NCBI GenBank assembly: GCA_964514595.1
Contig: CAZEQZ010000001.1
Span: 182,511 to 246,510 of the forward strand
Direction of reading: 5' to 3'
Length of the DNA: 64,000 bases
From: an uncultured Candidatus Saccharibacteria bacterium
Lineage (GTDB): Bacteria > Patescibacteriota > Dojkabacteria > SC72
The position numbers are program-made. This document shows positions 48,801-60,800 of the stretch, piece after piece. Positions within the stretch are counted from its first letter, which is position 1, and every line of letters starts with the position of its first letter.

Positions 48801-51800
48801 ACTCATACAGACGGTATTATCTGGGGTGAAAGAATTTTGCGTTAAGAATTTTCTTTTGTTCTCTTCTAGTTCTTTCTCCTCAGAGAACTTATATCCCATA
48901 TCCCCATCTTTAATTTGTGATATTGCATATTTTAATTTGTATATAGCTCTTTTAATCTTTCAAATGTTATTTTAAATACAATGTTTGGCTTTCCTCCAGC
49001 AGATACTAATATTTCGTCTTTATTAAATCCGTCCTCTATGTATGTTTTAAGTTTTGTCTTATGTCCGAATGGCGGTACGCCCCCTATACTATATCCTGTT
49101 ATTTCTTTTACTTCATCTGCATTGGCCATCCTCCCCCCTACTCCATCTAAATCCAACCTTTTATCTCCTGGTACTAGGTATAGTACAAAGTCATTATCTA
49201 CTTTAACTAGCAACGATTTGACAATATTACTTACGGGTACATTGTGTGTGTCTGCAGCTTGTTGTGCAGTATGAGTATCTTTGTCCGAAATAATCAAAGT
49301 TATATCTTTTATGTTGTTTTCTTTTAAATATCTTTCGAAAAGATTCATAGGTAAGTATATTATATATATGAATAATATTTAATATTTGCTAGATTAAATT
49401 ATATTAGAAGTATATAATAATTGTTTATGAATAAGGATAAAGAACCTAGTATTATAAAACTTTTGGCCTTTGTATATGAAAGGTACTACAGAAACACCAG
49501 ATTTAAATGGCATATATGGGCTTATATTATCCTTCTCTCATTAACAAAACTATATCCCTTATTGATCAGTTTCCTCTTGGGGAGGATTATAGATACCAGT
49601 ATATATGCTATAGATAATGGTGATGGATTTCAGTCTGTAGTACCTCTAATAATACTCTTTGGTGTTATTGCATTAATATGGACATTGGTTAACAATATCT
49701 TTCAGTATATAGATTCAACTATAGATTTATGGATATCCTATTTGGACGATGAAGTGTATTTAAATAAATATATAGAGATAGAGCCTAAGGCCTATGAAGA
49801 TCCAAGCTTTGTGAATCAGAAAGGAATGTTAAATTGGAACTCACATAGAATACTTCATTCATTCTTTCAATCTTTGGAGATACTATCTTTAGCACCAGTT
49901 GTTGCTATTTCCTTTTGGGCTATATTTACACAAATTCCACTTCTAGCAATTTTAGCTGTAATAGCCACTATCCCTACAGCTATTATAATAAAAAAATTTG
50001 GGAGAAAAGTATGGGGCATATGGAGTGATAGAGGAGATGAGAAGATAAAGTATTCAAGCTATAGAAGTACTTTGTGGAGTAGTCATTTTGAAAAACTTCA
50101 GGAGGTATATGTTTTTAAATATGGGAGATATCTTTTAGAGAAGGCTAAGAAGATAAATGAGAGATTTATTAATAAATTTAGAAAAAACTACATAAGTAGA
50201 TACTCTTGGTCTGCAGTAGCTAACTTTCTGTCTAATATTATCAACATCTTTGTTTTAATATTTTCAATTCAGATGGTTTTTGAAGGAAGTTTGACCATAG
50301 GTATGTTAACTTTTGTTATTTCTGCATATCAAAGATTTAATGGTGATGTCTCTGAGGTTTTGTATAAGGTTTCGGCGGTGTTAGGAGACAAGAAATTCTT
50401 TGCAACTTTCTATAATATTTTAAACTGGAAAAACACTATTGCTAGTGGAAAGGAAGATTTGGAGAATGTGGAAAGTGGTCTTTCTGTAGAATTCAAAAAT
50501 GTTTGGTTTAAATATCCAGAAACTAGAAAGTGGATTTTAAAGAATGTTAGTTTTAAAGTTAGTAAGGATGAAGATATTGCCATAGTAGGAAAGAATGGTG
50601 CTGGAAAGAGTACGATGATCAAACTTTTGTTAAGGGTGTATGATCCTCAAAAGGGAGAAATTATTGTTAATGGTCATAATATTAAGGATTTGAATTTGGA
50701 TGAATATTACAAATTAGTAGGGATTCTTTCACAATCATTTAATCAGCTTAGTATCACAGTAGAAGATAATATATTTGTAGGTGATGTCTCCAAAAATATG
50801 GATGGAGGTGTAGAGATAGCAGCTAAGAATGCTGATATTCATGATGCTATAATTCAACTCCCAGATAAATATAAAACATTTTTAAGTAGAGAGGTTAAGG
50901 GTGGTATACAACTATCGGGTGGACAGTGGCAAAAATTAGCTATAGCAAGAGCGTTCTTTAGAAATGCAAAACTGTTAATATTGGATGAGCCCACTAGTGG
51001 AGTGGATAGTATTTCTGAAGAAAAAATATTTGAAAATATTAGAAATAATGCAAAGGATAGAACAACGATTATTGTCTCACATAGGTTTGCTACAGTAAGA
51101 AAGGCTAAGAGAATAATAGTAATAGATGATGGAAAGATTGTGGAGGATGGTGATCATACTACTCTATTATCAAATAACGGATTGTATGCACAGATGTATA
51201 ATAAGCAGGTGGGATAGAATAGTAGATAATTTGTTTGCCTAAGTTATGAAAAAATCATACCGAGCAGGAGGAATAGTTATAAACAAAGAAGGTAAGATAG
51301 CGCTATCGAATGAACATATCTGGGGATTTCCTAGGGGTGGTGTAGAAGAAAAAGAAACATATATAGAAGCTGCTAGAAGAGAAATACTTGAAGAAACAGG
51401 TTTGAAAGATTTAGAGTTAATTAAAGATCTTGGTTTTTATGATAGATATCCCTTTGGTATAGATAAAGACACACCTGGTTCATATCCCATGGAAATACAT
51501 ATGTTTCTATTTAAAACAGAGTATATAGGAGATATGAATCCGTTGGATGAGGGTGTTAAGGAAACAGGCTGGTTTACATATGAGGAAGTAGTATCGAAGC
51601 TATCAGATCATGTAGATAGAGAGTTTTTTGAGAGTAAGAGGAAGGAAATATTAGAGATTATTAATAATATCTCTTAAATATTTTGTATCTTCGTAACTAT
51701 GATTATCTTCTGGTTCCCCTTCTCTAGTGTATTCTATTAATCTTGCATCTATGTTATTTTCTTTAATTATCCTATCTAATTGCTCATATTGTATAGCTGG

Positions 51801-57800: not shown

Positions 57801-60800
57801 ACAAAAATAATATTTTGGTATACTCTGCGAGATATATGGGTGGTTTAGTAGATGTTGATCGATCTTAGATAACAATTATTAATTATGTATCACGAAGATT
57901 CGGACATAAGAATAGATAATATAGAATCACGGGGGATTATATTAAAAGATGATAAAGTTCTGTTAATATTTAGGATAAAGAATGGAGGGAAGTATTATGT
58001 ATTTCCTGGTGGACATATGAGAGAAGGAGAAACTCCCTTGGATACAGCGATTAGGGAAATAGAGGAAGAAACTACAGTAAAGGCTAAGGATCTAACACTA
58101 ATATATGAATTAAAAACTCATATTAGGAATGAGATTATAGAACAGTATTGCTTTTTAGGAGAGTGGGAATCTGGAGAACCAATGTTGTCTGGGGAAGAAG
58201 CAGTTAGGAATTGTGAAGATAATTATTATGAACCAATGTGGGTTGATATTGATAAGATAAAGGATTTAAATCTTTTTCCATCAGTAGCAAAAGAATGGGT
58301 TGTATACTATCTAAAAGATTTCTTGGAAAGTAGAAAATAAATCACATATCCCCTTGTATGGAAGATCCAACTTTTGAAAAAGCTAAAATTGAAATCTCCG
58401 AAGATAATAAGATTGAATATCAAGAGATATCTGTTAAAAGTTTCAAAGAAGCCGTAGATGATATAGAGAATAAAAGAGATCCATCAGAATCTACCTTTTG
58501 TCTTGTAGATATTGATGGGTGTTTGATAGAAGATAATCTTGTTAAGTTACCGTTCATTACACATTTAGTAGAACCTAAGATTAATACAACTGTAGAGGAG
58601 TCTTTTAATAAATTGGTAGATATTTTTGATGGATCTTTAGCAATATCTACTAATAGAAGTAATATTGAAAGTAGAATATTTAATAGTCAGGATGTACTTA
58701 GTGTTATTAAAAATTTAATAGAAAGAACAGGTAATAATATTCCTGTATTCACATCACTGTATAAGCAAGCTCCTAGGTTTTTTAAAGAGGATATAGGGAG
58801 GAAATATTTATCAAAAGATGCACAAAGAGAATTGAATGAAGACATTGTAAAGAGTCCGAGATTGGATTCATTAGTGCACTATATTGGGAGAATAGTTGCA
58901 GAGAGTGATTCAGAAAAATTACTTCTCTACTCTATTGAGGATTGGAGTGTTGTCTCTTTGAATAGAAAAACTTCGTTGGAATATATAGGGAAGAGATTAA
59001 AAGAGGAATACGATATAGATGTTAGTATAGTTAATTATGTTGTTAAGACAGGTTCCCTTTTTTAATATATACTTTTATACATGATTATTCGTAAAGCTAA
59101 TAAAAAGGATGTAGAGAACATAATTACTGTTATTAAAGAGTCTGTACTTGGTACTCATCAAGAGTTATATCCCAAAAGGGATATAGAAGAAACACTAAAT
59201 AACTATACAAAGGAGAAAGTTTTGAAATATATAAAGGAGAGTGATTATTTTGTAGTAGAGGATAATGGAGAGATTATTGGATGTGTATTAGTAAAAGAAA
59301 ATAAGATGAGATCTTTATATGTACTTCCATCTCATATGGGAAAGGGATTAGGAAAGAAGCTTGTTCTTAAGGCTGAGGATTGTGTAAGGGAGAAGGAATA
59401 TGAAAAGATTTGGTTGTGGGCTAGCTTAGTAGCGCATGATTTTTATAAACATATGGGATATAAGGATATAAAGGATATCCCAAATGAGGATGGGTTGGTT
59501 TTACATATAGAAATGGAGAAGTATCTTTAAATATTACTTCATACAAACAAAATACACAGGTGGATGTTTTCTATTATCACTTTCTGAAATTTGTAACTCT
59601 CCATTTATTTTTAATACTCTTAATCCGATATCTTGAATTTGTTTCTTTATCTCCTTTATAGAACCGATATGTATATACTGTTTAGTTTTGTATGTTCTTT
59701 CATTATCACTACTCTCCCTACTAAAAAATCTGTCACCATAATTTAATTCTTTAATTCTGAAACCTAGAGGCTTTAATATGTAAAATCTTATCAACAGCCA
59801 AATAAATAGAAAAAAATATTTGGAGAAAAAATGTCTTGTGTGAGAGGTGAATATTAATACACCATCTTCTTTCAGTACCCGTCTCATCTCTTCAAGAGCT
59901 TGGGTTCTGTTCTCTTTCCCCGGTATTTGAGTCCATCCTTGATTAGAGAAAAATATATAATCAAATGTGTTATCTTCAAATTCCAGATTTGTAGCATCTC
60001 CTACTCTGTAGTCAATATCTAGCCCTTTTCCATTTGATATTTTCTTTGCATTCTCTATCATGATTTCTACAATATCTACCCCTATTACATCATAGCCCTC
60101 TTTGTGTAATGGTATTGTAGTTCTACCTGTCCCACATCCTAAATCTAATAGTTTTCCTTCTTTATTTGTAAAATATTTTTCTATGAAATATTTTTCAGAA
60201 AGCCATAGGCCTTCTTCTGCTTTCTTAATATATTGGCGTTGTGCATTATCACTAGAGAATTCATCTATAACGATCTGTTTTAAATCTTTTTGCATATGTT
60301 AGATAAATATATCATAGGGAAGGAATTAGGAATAGAATGCCTCTAAAATAATAATGATATAATCTTGTTATGGTAGATATTAAATATTCTCAAAACTTCT
60401 ATACGAATAACGGTAATTTAAAAAGAATTATGGATTCTCTTAATATATCTCCTAATGGTACAGTTATTGATATAGGAGCTGGTAAAGGTACTATAACTGA
60501 AATTCTTTCTAAATATTCTAATGATGTAATAGCATATGAATTAGATCCTAAGTACTATGAAATACTAAAAGAAAAGTATAAGGATATTCCTAATGTTACT
60601 GTAAAGAATGAGGATTTTCTCTCCTCTCCCCTACCAAGTAACCAGTATAAGGTTTTCTCTAACATACCTTTCTCTTTGACATCTGATATTGTAAATAAAA
60701 TAACGGATGCATCTTCTAATTTAGTAGAAGCATATCTATTTGTTCAAAAGGAATCAGCACAGAGATATATAGGGAAACCTATAAATACACAAATATCATC

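Follow-up and report, generated by a model that had tools for sequence, protein, structure and literature searches.

The DNA studied here is a 64-kb stretch (hereafter the window) from the small genome of a Candidatus Dojkabacteria bacterium (WS6), a member of the candidate phyla radiation (CPR). The guanine-plus-cytosine (GC) content of the window is 27-39%, and 94% of it is coding. Within a span of 7.8 kb it carries four genes with a Pfam NUDIX domain, which we call N1 (51246), N2 (55603), N3 (56390) and N4 (57885), together with genes for an HD hydrolase, a DUF5680 protein and a DUF1653 protein (Table 1). The genes listed in a first-pass annotation of this DNA all correspond to open reading frames (ORFs), and its remark on an unusual density of Nudix genes was borne out. 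A regular expression for the Nudix box run over the whole 64 kb matched no ORFs besides these four. All four belong to the Nudix hydrolase superfamily (PF00293) by fold and by box. The boxes of N1 and N2 are canonical (GX5EX7REUXEEXGU), and those of N3 and N4 differ only at the penultimate G, which is replaced by N or T. N2, in which a winged helix-turn-helix (wHTH) domain precedes the Nudix domain, is the main subject of this work: judging by the conserved features described below, the N2 gene probably controls its own expression.

The N-terminus of N2 gave weak Pfam matches to the winged-helix families DUF7347, HTH_45 and DUF2513 (E ~1e-3, below the cut-offs), and a sequence profile of the wHTH matched AspA, HxlR and Sso10a weakly in the PDB (E 0.03-0.07). 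The AlphaFold model of full-length N2, with a predicted local distance difference test score (pLDDT) of 88, shows an H-H-H-β-β arrangement plus a linker helix over residues 1-75, followed by a Nudix fold. Structure searches with this full-length model matched Nudix domains only, those of NrtR and AraR among the best, and none of the solved structures searched holds both N2 domains in this arrangement. When the wHTH was modelled alone (pLDDT 86.6), Foldseek returned DNA-binding winged-helix regulators at template modelling (TM) scores of 0.7-0.84, including YtfH/HxlR, MarR-family proteins, AspA, Sso10a, YodB, QsrR and OhrR, with QsrR and AspA matched as DNA complexes. The region that had been proposed as a DNA-binding domain in the first-pass annotation indeed models as a winged helix of the MarR/HxlR/Sso10a type.

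Homologues of N2 are numerous. A word-indexed search gave 904 matches, and an exhaustive profile search gave at least 318 clusters (50% identity) at E ≤1e-30, nearly all of them 225-240 amino acids long and covered over both domains. Record titles place the family in Dojkabacteria, Shapirobacteria, Woesebacteria, Sungiibacteriota, Saccharimonadales and Parcubacteria; no description of it was found in the literature searched, whose coverage was incomplete. In an alignment of 40 homologues (48-92% identity), the Nudix-box residues G117, E123, R131, E132, E135 and E136 are invariant, and so are D34, H35, F36, Y38 and H39 of the predicted recognition helix (residues 33-45).

Alignment of the DNA upstream of N2 homologues revealed a palindromic promoter motif, TAGTGAAAT-NN-ATTTCACTA(GA), with a 16-bp core and a spacer of 2 nt between the half-sites. 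The operator in its family form is written TAGTGAAATCAATTTCACTAGA, and the window carries a variant copy in front of N2 (Table 1), which scores 29.5 bits against a position weight matrix (PWM) of the motif and is the single site in the window with at most one mismatch. Of 62 distinct family promoters, 57 have the motif at the same position, including promoters from several CPR classes and those of genes whose proteins are as little as 41% identical. When N-terminus and upstream site were considered as pairs, 63 different combinations resulted; 57 of these match at 14 or more of 20 positions, and a contig end truncates one of the other six. Positions T4, A6, A7, T14, T15, A17, T19 and G21 are invariant in 39 sites, with flanking intergenic positions at 0.1-0.4 bit. 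A PWM scan at 12 bits of 850 kb (the window plus 55 loci) recovered hardly any sequence outside the N2-family promoters. When public metagenome contigs were searched with the motif only, 80 readable loci came back, 19 of them with an N2 homologue directly downstream, including two that were recognised from their promoter sequence because the stored DNA stops before the gene. Most of the other metagenome matches fall within long ORFs, on unrelated contigs that are often rich in GC, and have the appearance of chance matches. Neither the PWM scan of all loci, nor the metagenome scan, nor inspection of the intergenic matches away from N2 revealed a convincing regulon beyond N2. In the window, no operator precedes the HD gene, N4 or N1, and the site lies downstream of N3; since it occurs nowhere else in the window, nothing shows N2 controlling the other genes of the cluster.

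The promoter around the palindrome is conserved as well. Anchoring 55 promoters on the operator revealed the pattern T17 G18 n T20 A21 t a a T25, an extended −10 element at fixed distance, which the window shares in the form listed in Table 1. From this fixed distance it follows that the palindrome is centred near −43.5 from the inferred transcription start (~56320 in the window) and overlaps the −35 region. The operator lies either ~30 nt or ~53 nt upstream of the ATG. In the ~30-nt class, which makes up about a third of the family promoters (L015, L016, L018, L028, L043, L045, L060 and others), the ATG follows the −10 hexamer by 6-7 nt, which implies a leaderless mRNA. The remaining promoters have a leader of ~22 nt and no obvious Shine-Dalgarno sequence. 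Consensus scans for σ70 promoters and terminators between 51 and 59.6 kb performed no better than on shuffled sequence. Downstream of N2, gaps of 31 nt, 2 nt and 27 nt precede the 165-aa ORF, the DUF1653 gene and typA, respectively, and these four genes might be co-transcribed in the window; in the nearest relative (L013), this series is interrupted by a convergent gene.

Several individual loci deserve mention. At locus L010, the operator and its flanking promoter are present in two copies (9085-9106 and 9926-9947), one before N2 and one before a 217-aa ORF directly upstream of it; this second site is a local promoter duplication and the only extra candidate regulon member seen. The genome of locus L005 encodes two wHTH–Nudix paralogues 2.3 kb apart (6942-7652 on the minus strand and 10001-10690 on the plus strand), one of which has the operator; the paralogue without it has the changed recognition helix ENNKLNFH and overlaps a gene for an OGG-type 8-oxoguanine glycosylase. 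A Woesearchaeota contig (L055, 9139-10702) carries two tandem homologues (34% identity) that have no bacterial operator and do not match the Nudix-box regular expression. Three human-gut contigs (L067, L122 and L131, e.g. L131 673-760) contain tandem, iteron-like TAGTGAAG-N-CTTCAC-like half-sites upstream of an ORF starting VKPTSHK. These contigs are unrelated to the CPR loci, and the half-sites may be the binding array of another protein.

The palindrome might be recognised by a factor other than N2, constitute a specialised promoter element or form a nucleic-acid hairpin, with the winged helix serving for dimerisation or RNA binding. We consider this improbable. The low-scoring Pfam and PDB profile matches of the wHTH given above speak in its favour, and the A-to-G and T-to-C changes seen in L049, L050 and L054 would preserve a hairpin too. 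However, the site accompanies the gene across several CPR classes and is essentially absent elsewhere, and many changes are uncompensated: G5 is T opposite C16 in 12 of 39 sites, and G3 is missing opposite C18 in nine of 39. The RNA of the window spacer is predicted to fold less stably than shuffled sequence (z +1.7) and leaves the motif unpaired, and leaderless transcripts would not include the motif, which in that class of promoters precedes the −10 element. Uncompensated decay of the left half-site, together with the absence of RNA folding, favours a protein site, and the RNA-hairpin reading was not supported. Paralogues with an altered recognition helix also lack the site: D34 is N or K in the second copy of L005, in the L035 copy and in two archaeal copies, none of which has the motif. 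Three lineages with the helix sequence SDQ(F/L)xFH carry the symmetric variant GTGAAG..CTTCAC. We infer that N2 itself would read the candidate operator, act on it as a repressor and respond to a ligand.

In our working model, an N2 dimer would bind the palindrome through its N-terminal winged helices and, sitting ~43.5 bp upstream of the inferred start, would occlude the −35 region of its own promoter. In this way N2 would determine how strongly its gene is transcribed, repression being the most likely mode. Binding of a nucleotide substrate or product in the Nudix pocket probably alters the affinity for DNA, and the amount of hydrolase would then track the nucleotide pool, with the enzyme being made when substrate accumulates, following the logic of BirA and enterobacterial NadR. 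The first-pass annotation had suggested a nucleotide-sensing regulator. This role is plausible, because N2 combines a fold of the DNA-binding type with a palindrome that is conserved in the family's own promoters, co-occurs with the gene and is rare elsewhere.

The Nudix-related transcriptional regulators known so far are NrtR, AraR and NadQ (PMC2330246, PMC4666351). They combine an N-terminal Nudix-like domain, whose signature is usually degenerate, with a characteristic C-terminal wHTH; their operators precede genes of nicotinamide adenine dinucleotide (NAD) or sugar metabolism, with chromosomal linkage to the NAD genes in the case of NrtR, and their effectors are of the ADP-ribose type (PMC2330246). 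N2 shares with NrtR, AraR and NadQ the fusion of a Nudix-fold domain to a winged helix, a palindromic, promoter-proximal (in N2, candidate) operator and the presumed logic of DNA binding that is tuned by a ligand occupying the Nudix pocket. In contrast to NrtR, the domain order is reversed, with the wHTH first (residues 1-75) and the Nudix domain second (81-203). The N2 wHTH resembles HxlR, MarR, AspA and Sso10a rather than the C-terminal domain of NrtR, and has no Pfam match to the NrtR wHTH. The Nudix signature, lost in most NrtR members (PMC2330246), is invariant in the N2 family. Moreover, the N2 operator was found only before its own gene, and a census of neighbours at 66 loci contained no NAD genes. 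Of the inverted NrtR-like architecture that had been suggested for N2, the reversed domain order therefore holds, whereas membership in NrtR does not, given the different wHTH family, the intact box and the absence of NAD genes and of operators before them. N2 would work like a Nudix-linked regulator without being a member of NrtR, AraR or NadQ.

A parallel in logic may be found in BirA and enterobacterial NadR, which have been listed as precedents of enzyme-regulators (PMC2330246). Like these, N2 carries an N-terminal DNA-binding domain on an enzyme that, with its intact box, is predicted to be catalytically competent, and has a palindromic operator; by analogy, the ligand state of the enzyme would be coupled to DNA binding. 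The enzyme folds are unrelated, however (biotin ligase in BirA, nicotinamide mononucleotide adenylyltransferase/kinase in NadR), and BirA and NadR regulate biosynthetic operons, whereas for N2 only autoregulation is predicted.

Table 1. Genes, domains and promoter elements around N2; positions are those of the window.
Feature	Position	Strand	Details
N1, 143-aa Nudix hydrolase	51246-51677	+	Canonical box; Pfam NUDIX E 1.5e-18; closest solved relatives Ndx1 Ap6A hydrolase, Aquifex Ap4A hydrolase, CT771 and RppH
Gp49/HigB-like toxin gene and XRE-type HTH_3 gene	52246-52882	+	PF05973, E 4e-16; HTH_3, E 1.5e-15
DUF1653 protein, 80 aa	54829-55071	-	Pfam DUF1653 E 2.3e-18
165-aa ORF	55074-55571	-	No Pfam, NCBIfam or PADLOC match
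N2, 231-aa wHTH–Nudix fusion	55603-56298	-	Pfam NUDIX E 1.4e-14; closest solved relatives B. halodurans 'MutT', NUDT18 and ADP-ribose pyrophosphatases
N2 Nudix domain, residues 81-203	55690-56058	-	
N2 Nudix box, G117-L139	55882-55950	-	
N2 winged helix, residues 1-75	56074-56298	-	
Extended −10-like element TGCTATATT	56327-56335	-	Starts 16 nt after the operator; TG 56335-56334, hexamer 56332→56327
Candidate N2 operator TAGTTAAATCCATTTCACTAGT	56352-56373 (core 56356-56371)	-	53 nt before the N2 ATG, in the 91-nt N3–N2 spacer
N3, 136-aa Nudix hydrolase	56390-56800	-	Box ending ...EETNL; Pfam NUDIX E 2.5e-15; weak similarity to the NUDT12 Nudix domain and NudB
HD-domain phosphohydrolase, 184 aa	56838-57392	+	Pfam HD E 4.4e-14; TIGR00277 HDIG above cut-off
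DUF5680 protein, 155 aa	57401-57868	+	Pfam DUF5680 E 3.7e-31; no solved relative found
N4, 151-aa Nudix hydrolase	57885-58340	+	Box ending ...EETTV; Pfam NUDIX E 5.3e-16; weak similarity to a Pyrobaculum Nudix protein, Ap4A hydrolase and MutT
235-aa ORF	58358-59065	+	No family match; a GNAT gene comes next, on the same densely packed strand

N1 starts 28 nt past an ABC-transporter gene and is separated from the other three Nudix genes by six genes, namely a 172-aa ORF, the Gp49/HigB-like and XRE genes, typA/bipA (TypA/BipA), the DUF1653 gene and the 165-aa ORF, so that the tight part of the cluster consists of three Nudix genes in 2.7 kb. The HigB-like and XRE genes lie 10 nt apart between N1 and typA and are likely a type II toxin–antitoxin pair, which L013, the nearest relative, has as well (56-68% identity). 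The DUF1653 gene, on the same strand as N2, is flanked by the 165-aa ORF and typA. The 165-aa ORF contains the string 'YVFHGSP', reminiscent of H-Y-E motifs, and was considered as ADP-ribosyltransferase-like; family searches gave no support and this candidate was dropped. The start codons of N3 and the HD gene are divergent and 37 nt apart (56801-56837), so that their promoters must overlap each other or sit inside neighbouring coding sequences. The closest solved relatives of the HD protein are uncharacterised HD hydrolases. No tRNA, Rfam family or CRISPR was found in the window.

We compared the surroundings of N2 homologues using six contig look-ups, 43 loci (one genome per species) and the loci from the metagenome scan, in total ~66 distinct N2 loci, each viewed over ±10 kb around the homologue. 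We found the full arrangement on no contigs other than those encoding 100% identical proteins. The nearest relative is L013, where N2 is 92% and TypA 95% identical, and the ABC transporter, the 172-aa ORF, HigB/XRE, TypA, DUF1653, N2, RrnaAD (rRNA-adenine-dimethylase-like) and GNAT genes are all retained; within 10 kb of N2, however, there is no N1, N3, N4, HD or DUF5680 gene, and the genes flanking N2 are a GNAT-like one, one of unknown type and a kinase-like one in convergent orientation. A second ORF with a Nudix box was found in the flanks of seven of the 43 genome loci, and two such ORFs in none. Orthologues of N3, HD and N4 stood beside N2 in none of the ~66 distinct loci, and N1 orthologues (53-58% identity) adjoin N2 in three (L026, L028 and L057). 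At seven of 66 loci, a DUF5680 orthologue lies a few kb or less from N2, in positions that vary and with no HD or Nudix gene next to it, and a DUF1653 orthologue is similarly close at seven of 66, again in varying positions; the recurrence of both looks like residual synteny. No single neighbour accompanies N2 at more than 15% of the loci. The 165-aa ORF is absent next to N2 in all other loci and has a 44% identical homologue on L173, and distant homologues of the 235-aa ORF (31-41% identity) occur on L014, L022, L099 and L173.

The orthologues of N3 and N4 are found elsewhere. Those of N4 (≤65% identity) lie next to hisS or between genes for a UDG-superfamily glycosylase and a DUF218 protein, with no HD, DUF5680 or N2 gene adjacent, and those of N3 (≤64% identity) were seen in three further contexts (L172, L173 and L174). 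Thus, the nearest relative and ~66 other loci lack the cluster and N3 and N4 are scattered, largely the outcome that the first-pass annotation had named as speaking against a functional link; beyond near-identical strains, the sole case of conserved co-location is the HD/N3 pair on L173.

These data bear on the proposal that the four Nudix genes, the HD gene and the DUF genes form one functional module for a modified or signalling nucleotide, or for NAD or ADP-ribose, under the control of the wHTH–Nudix protein. Only 2-91 nt separate consecutive genes, which are arranged on two divergent strands, and the chance of all four Nudix genes (among ~70 genes) falling within a 12-gene span is p ~0.01, a post hoc figure. 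On L173, the HD and N3 orthologues are again divergent and homologues of the 165-aa ORF, DUF1653 and the 235-aa ORF are present, and YfbR-like HD genes lie near an N3 orthologue (L174) and an N2 orthologue (L003). Yet the tight spacing is uninformative at a coding density of 94% across the window, and the gene set is missing from the nearest relative and ~66 other N2 loci. The N4 and DUF5680 orthologues are solitary elsewhere, the operator stands in front of N2 only, the Nudix proteins are unrelated beyond the box, and no NAD genes are present. We therefore regard a single module as distinctly improbable. The nucleotide-processing cluster envisaged in the first-pass annotation finds little in its favour apart from the divergent HD/N3 pair, and no signature of NAD metabolism was found.

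A smaller unit of two genes fares better, although we still think it rather unlikely: N3 would cleave off diphosphate and the HD protein would then dephosphorylate the resulting monophosphate, with the other genes as bystanders. In E. coli, deoxynucleotide catabolism proceeds through Nudix or MazG enzymes and then YfbR-type HD 5'-nucleotidases, which provides a precedent for such sequential action. On L173, the orthologues of HD (61% identity) and N3 (63% identity) are divergent neighbours ~700 nt apart, and on L174 an N3 orthologue lies 550 nt from a YfbR-like HD gene. However, this L174 HD gene is not orthologous, a 196-aa gene lies between the pair on L173, and of the four N3 contexts seen in all, the one on L172 has no Nudix or HD neighbour. 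Residual synteny of related genomes could account for L173, a contig on which N2, N4 and DUF5680 are absent.

The same genes had also been suspected of toxin or anti-phage nucleotide signalling; in such a system, Nudix and HD enzymes would destroy nucleotides or signalling nucleotides. PADLOC matched a candidate Nudix model (PDC-S07) and Cas3/Cas10 HD models, and the Gp49/HigB-like and XRE pair lies nearby. The PADLOC matches are domain-level only, though (generic Nudix, E 1e-6 to 1e-13; generic HD, 2e-8), no cas genes, cyclases, effectors or other signature partners accompany them in the window, nor any CRISPR, tRNA or Rfam element, and the gene set is not conserved among N2 loci. Nor were these exact subfamilies seen to recur alongside known defence genes in other genomes. 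A defence system of this kind is hardly credible.

The description of the Nudix genes as paralogues also needs revision. Pairwise BLAST alignments of N1-N4 show 27-48% identity confined to 27-62 residues around the Nudix box, and the four are not recent paralogues; as judged from their sequences, they come from four unrelated Nudix subfamilies. Like characterised housecleaning Nudix hydrolases (MutT, RppH, Ap4A hydrolases, NudB and ADP-ribose pyrophosphatases), N1, N3 and N4 are single-domain proteins of 136-151 amino acids with catalytic boxes, N1 being nearest to the Ap_nA hydrolases and RppH. Their identity to these enzymes is, however, limited to the region of the Nudix box, and since similarity to solved structures is restricted in this way, no substrate can be called. 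The Pro/Tyr specificity motifs downstream of the box were ambiguous by eye (N1 has Y+15 and P+16) and were not used.

The wider context offers a simple reading of the cluster. The first 46 kb of the window consist of large core genes, and small accessory genes fill the last 18 kb, a flexible zone that includes Nudix, HD, GNAT acetyltransferase, methyltransferase, UDG, DUF218 and kinase genes and the toxin–antitoxin pair. Between 59081 and 63431 lie genes for a GNAT protein, an S-adenosylmethionine (SAM) methyltransferase, an rRNA-adenine-dimethylase-like protein, a UDG-superfamily glycosylase, a DUF218 protein and a kinase-like protein of the APH/choline-kinase type. Their order is unlike that in L013, in agreement with a flexible zone. 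The GC content drops to 0.27 at the window end. The clustering within the window is most simply attributed to this zone, in which gene gain and loss are visible by comparison with L013.

Taken together, we think it fairly probable that the four Nudix genes are neighbours specific to this lineage, placed in an accessory stretch that is dense in genes and changes fast, and do not constitute a conserved multi-gene system, and that N2 is at the same time a self-regulating enzyme–repressor. Several points weigh against this interpretation. Regulon members farther from N2 than the flanks compared here would escape our view. The clustering of Nudix genes inside the window is nominally non-random (p ~0.01), and the recurrence of the HD/N3 pair on L173 leaves room for some local functional linkage. 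As to N2, the transcription start was inferred from the −10-like consensus only, and a centre near −43.5 would fit an activator equally well. Phylogeny confounds the correlation between recognition helix and operator, to which L066, L078 and L150 are exceptions, H35 is replaced by N, D, K or Q in homologues that retain the standard motif, and a different factor could read the candidate operator. Concerning the substrate of N2, no score of any of N1-N4 reaches an NCBIfam equivalog cut-off, and all are far below.

For the biology of the host, the cluster itself would then be ordinary: small housecleaning genes accumulate where a reduced genome changes quickly, and they should not be taken for a pathway. 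For the family, we hold it an evenly balanced proposition that the wHTH–Nudix proteins are an undescribed class of Nudix-linked regulators, widespread in Patescibacteria and with distant relatives in Woesearchaeota, which appear catalytically intact and which, with their own N-terminal winged helix and a near-invariant palindromic operator, would act as self-titrating sensors of nucleotide pools in organisms that scavenge nucleotides. CPR bacteria cannot be cultured alone, and to our knowledge almost no regulators and DNA sites of these organisms have been described. Comparative sequence analysis by itself here gives a family of at least 318 clusters, a 22-bp site, a promoter architecture with an extended −10 element and often a leaderless transcript, and the recognition-helix residues. 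If our interpretation is true, N2 and its operator would count among the earliest pairs of transcription factor and operator to be defined across CPR phyla, and N2 would add to the known means of coupling a Nudix fold to DNA binding, mirroring the arrangement of NrtR, AraR and NadQ with an enzyme that is predicted to be intact.

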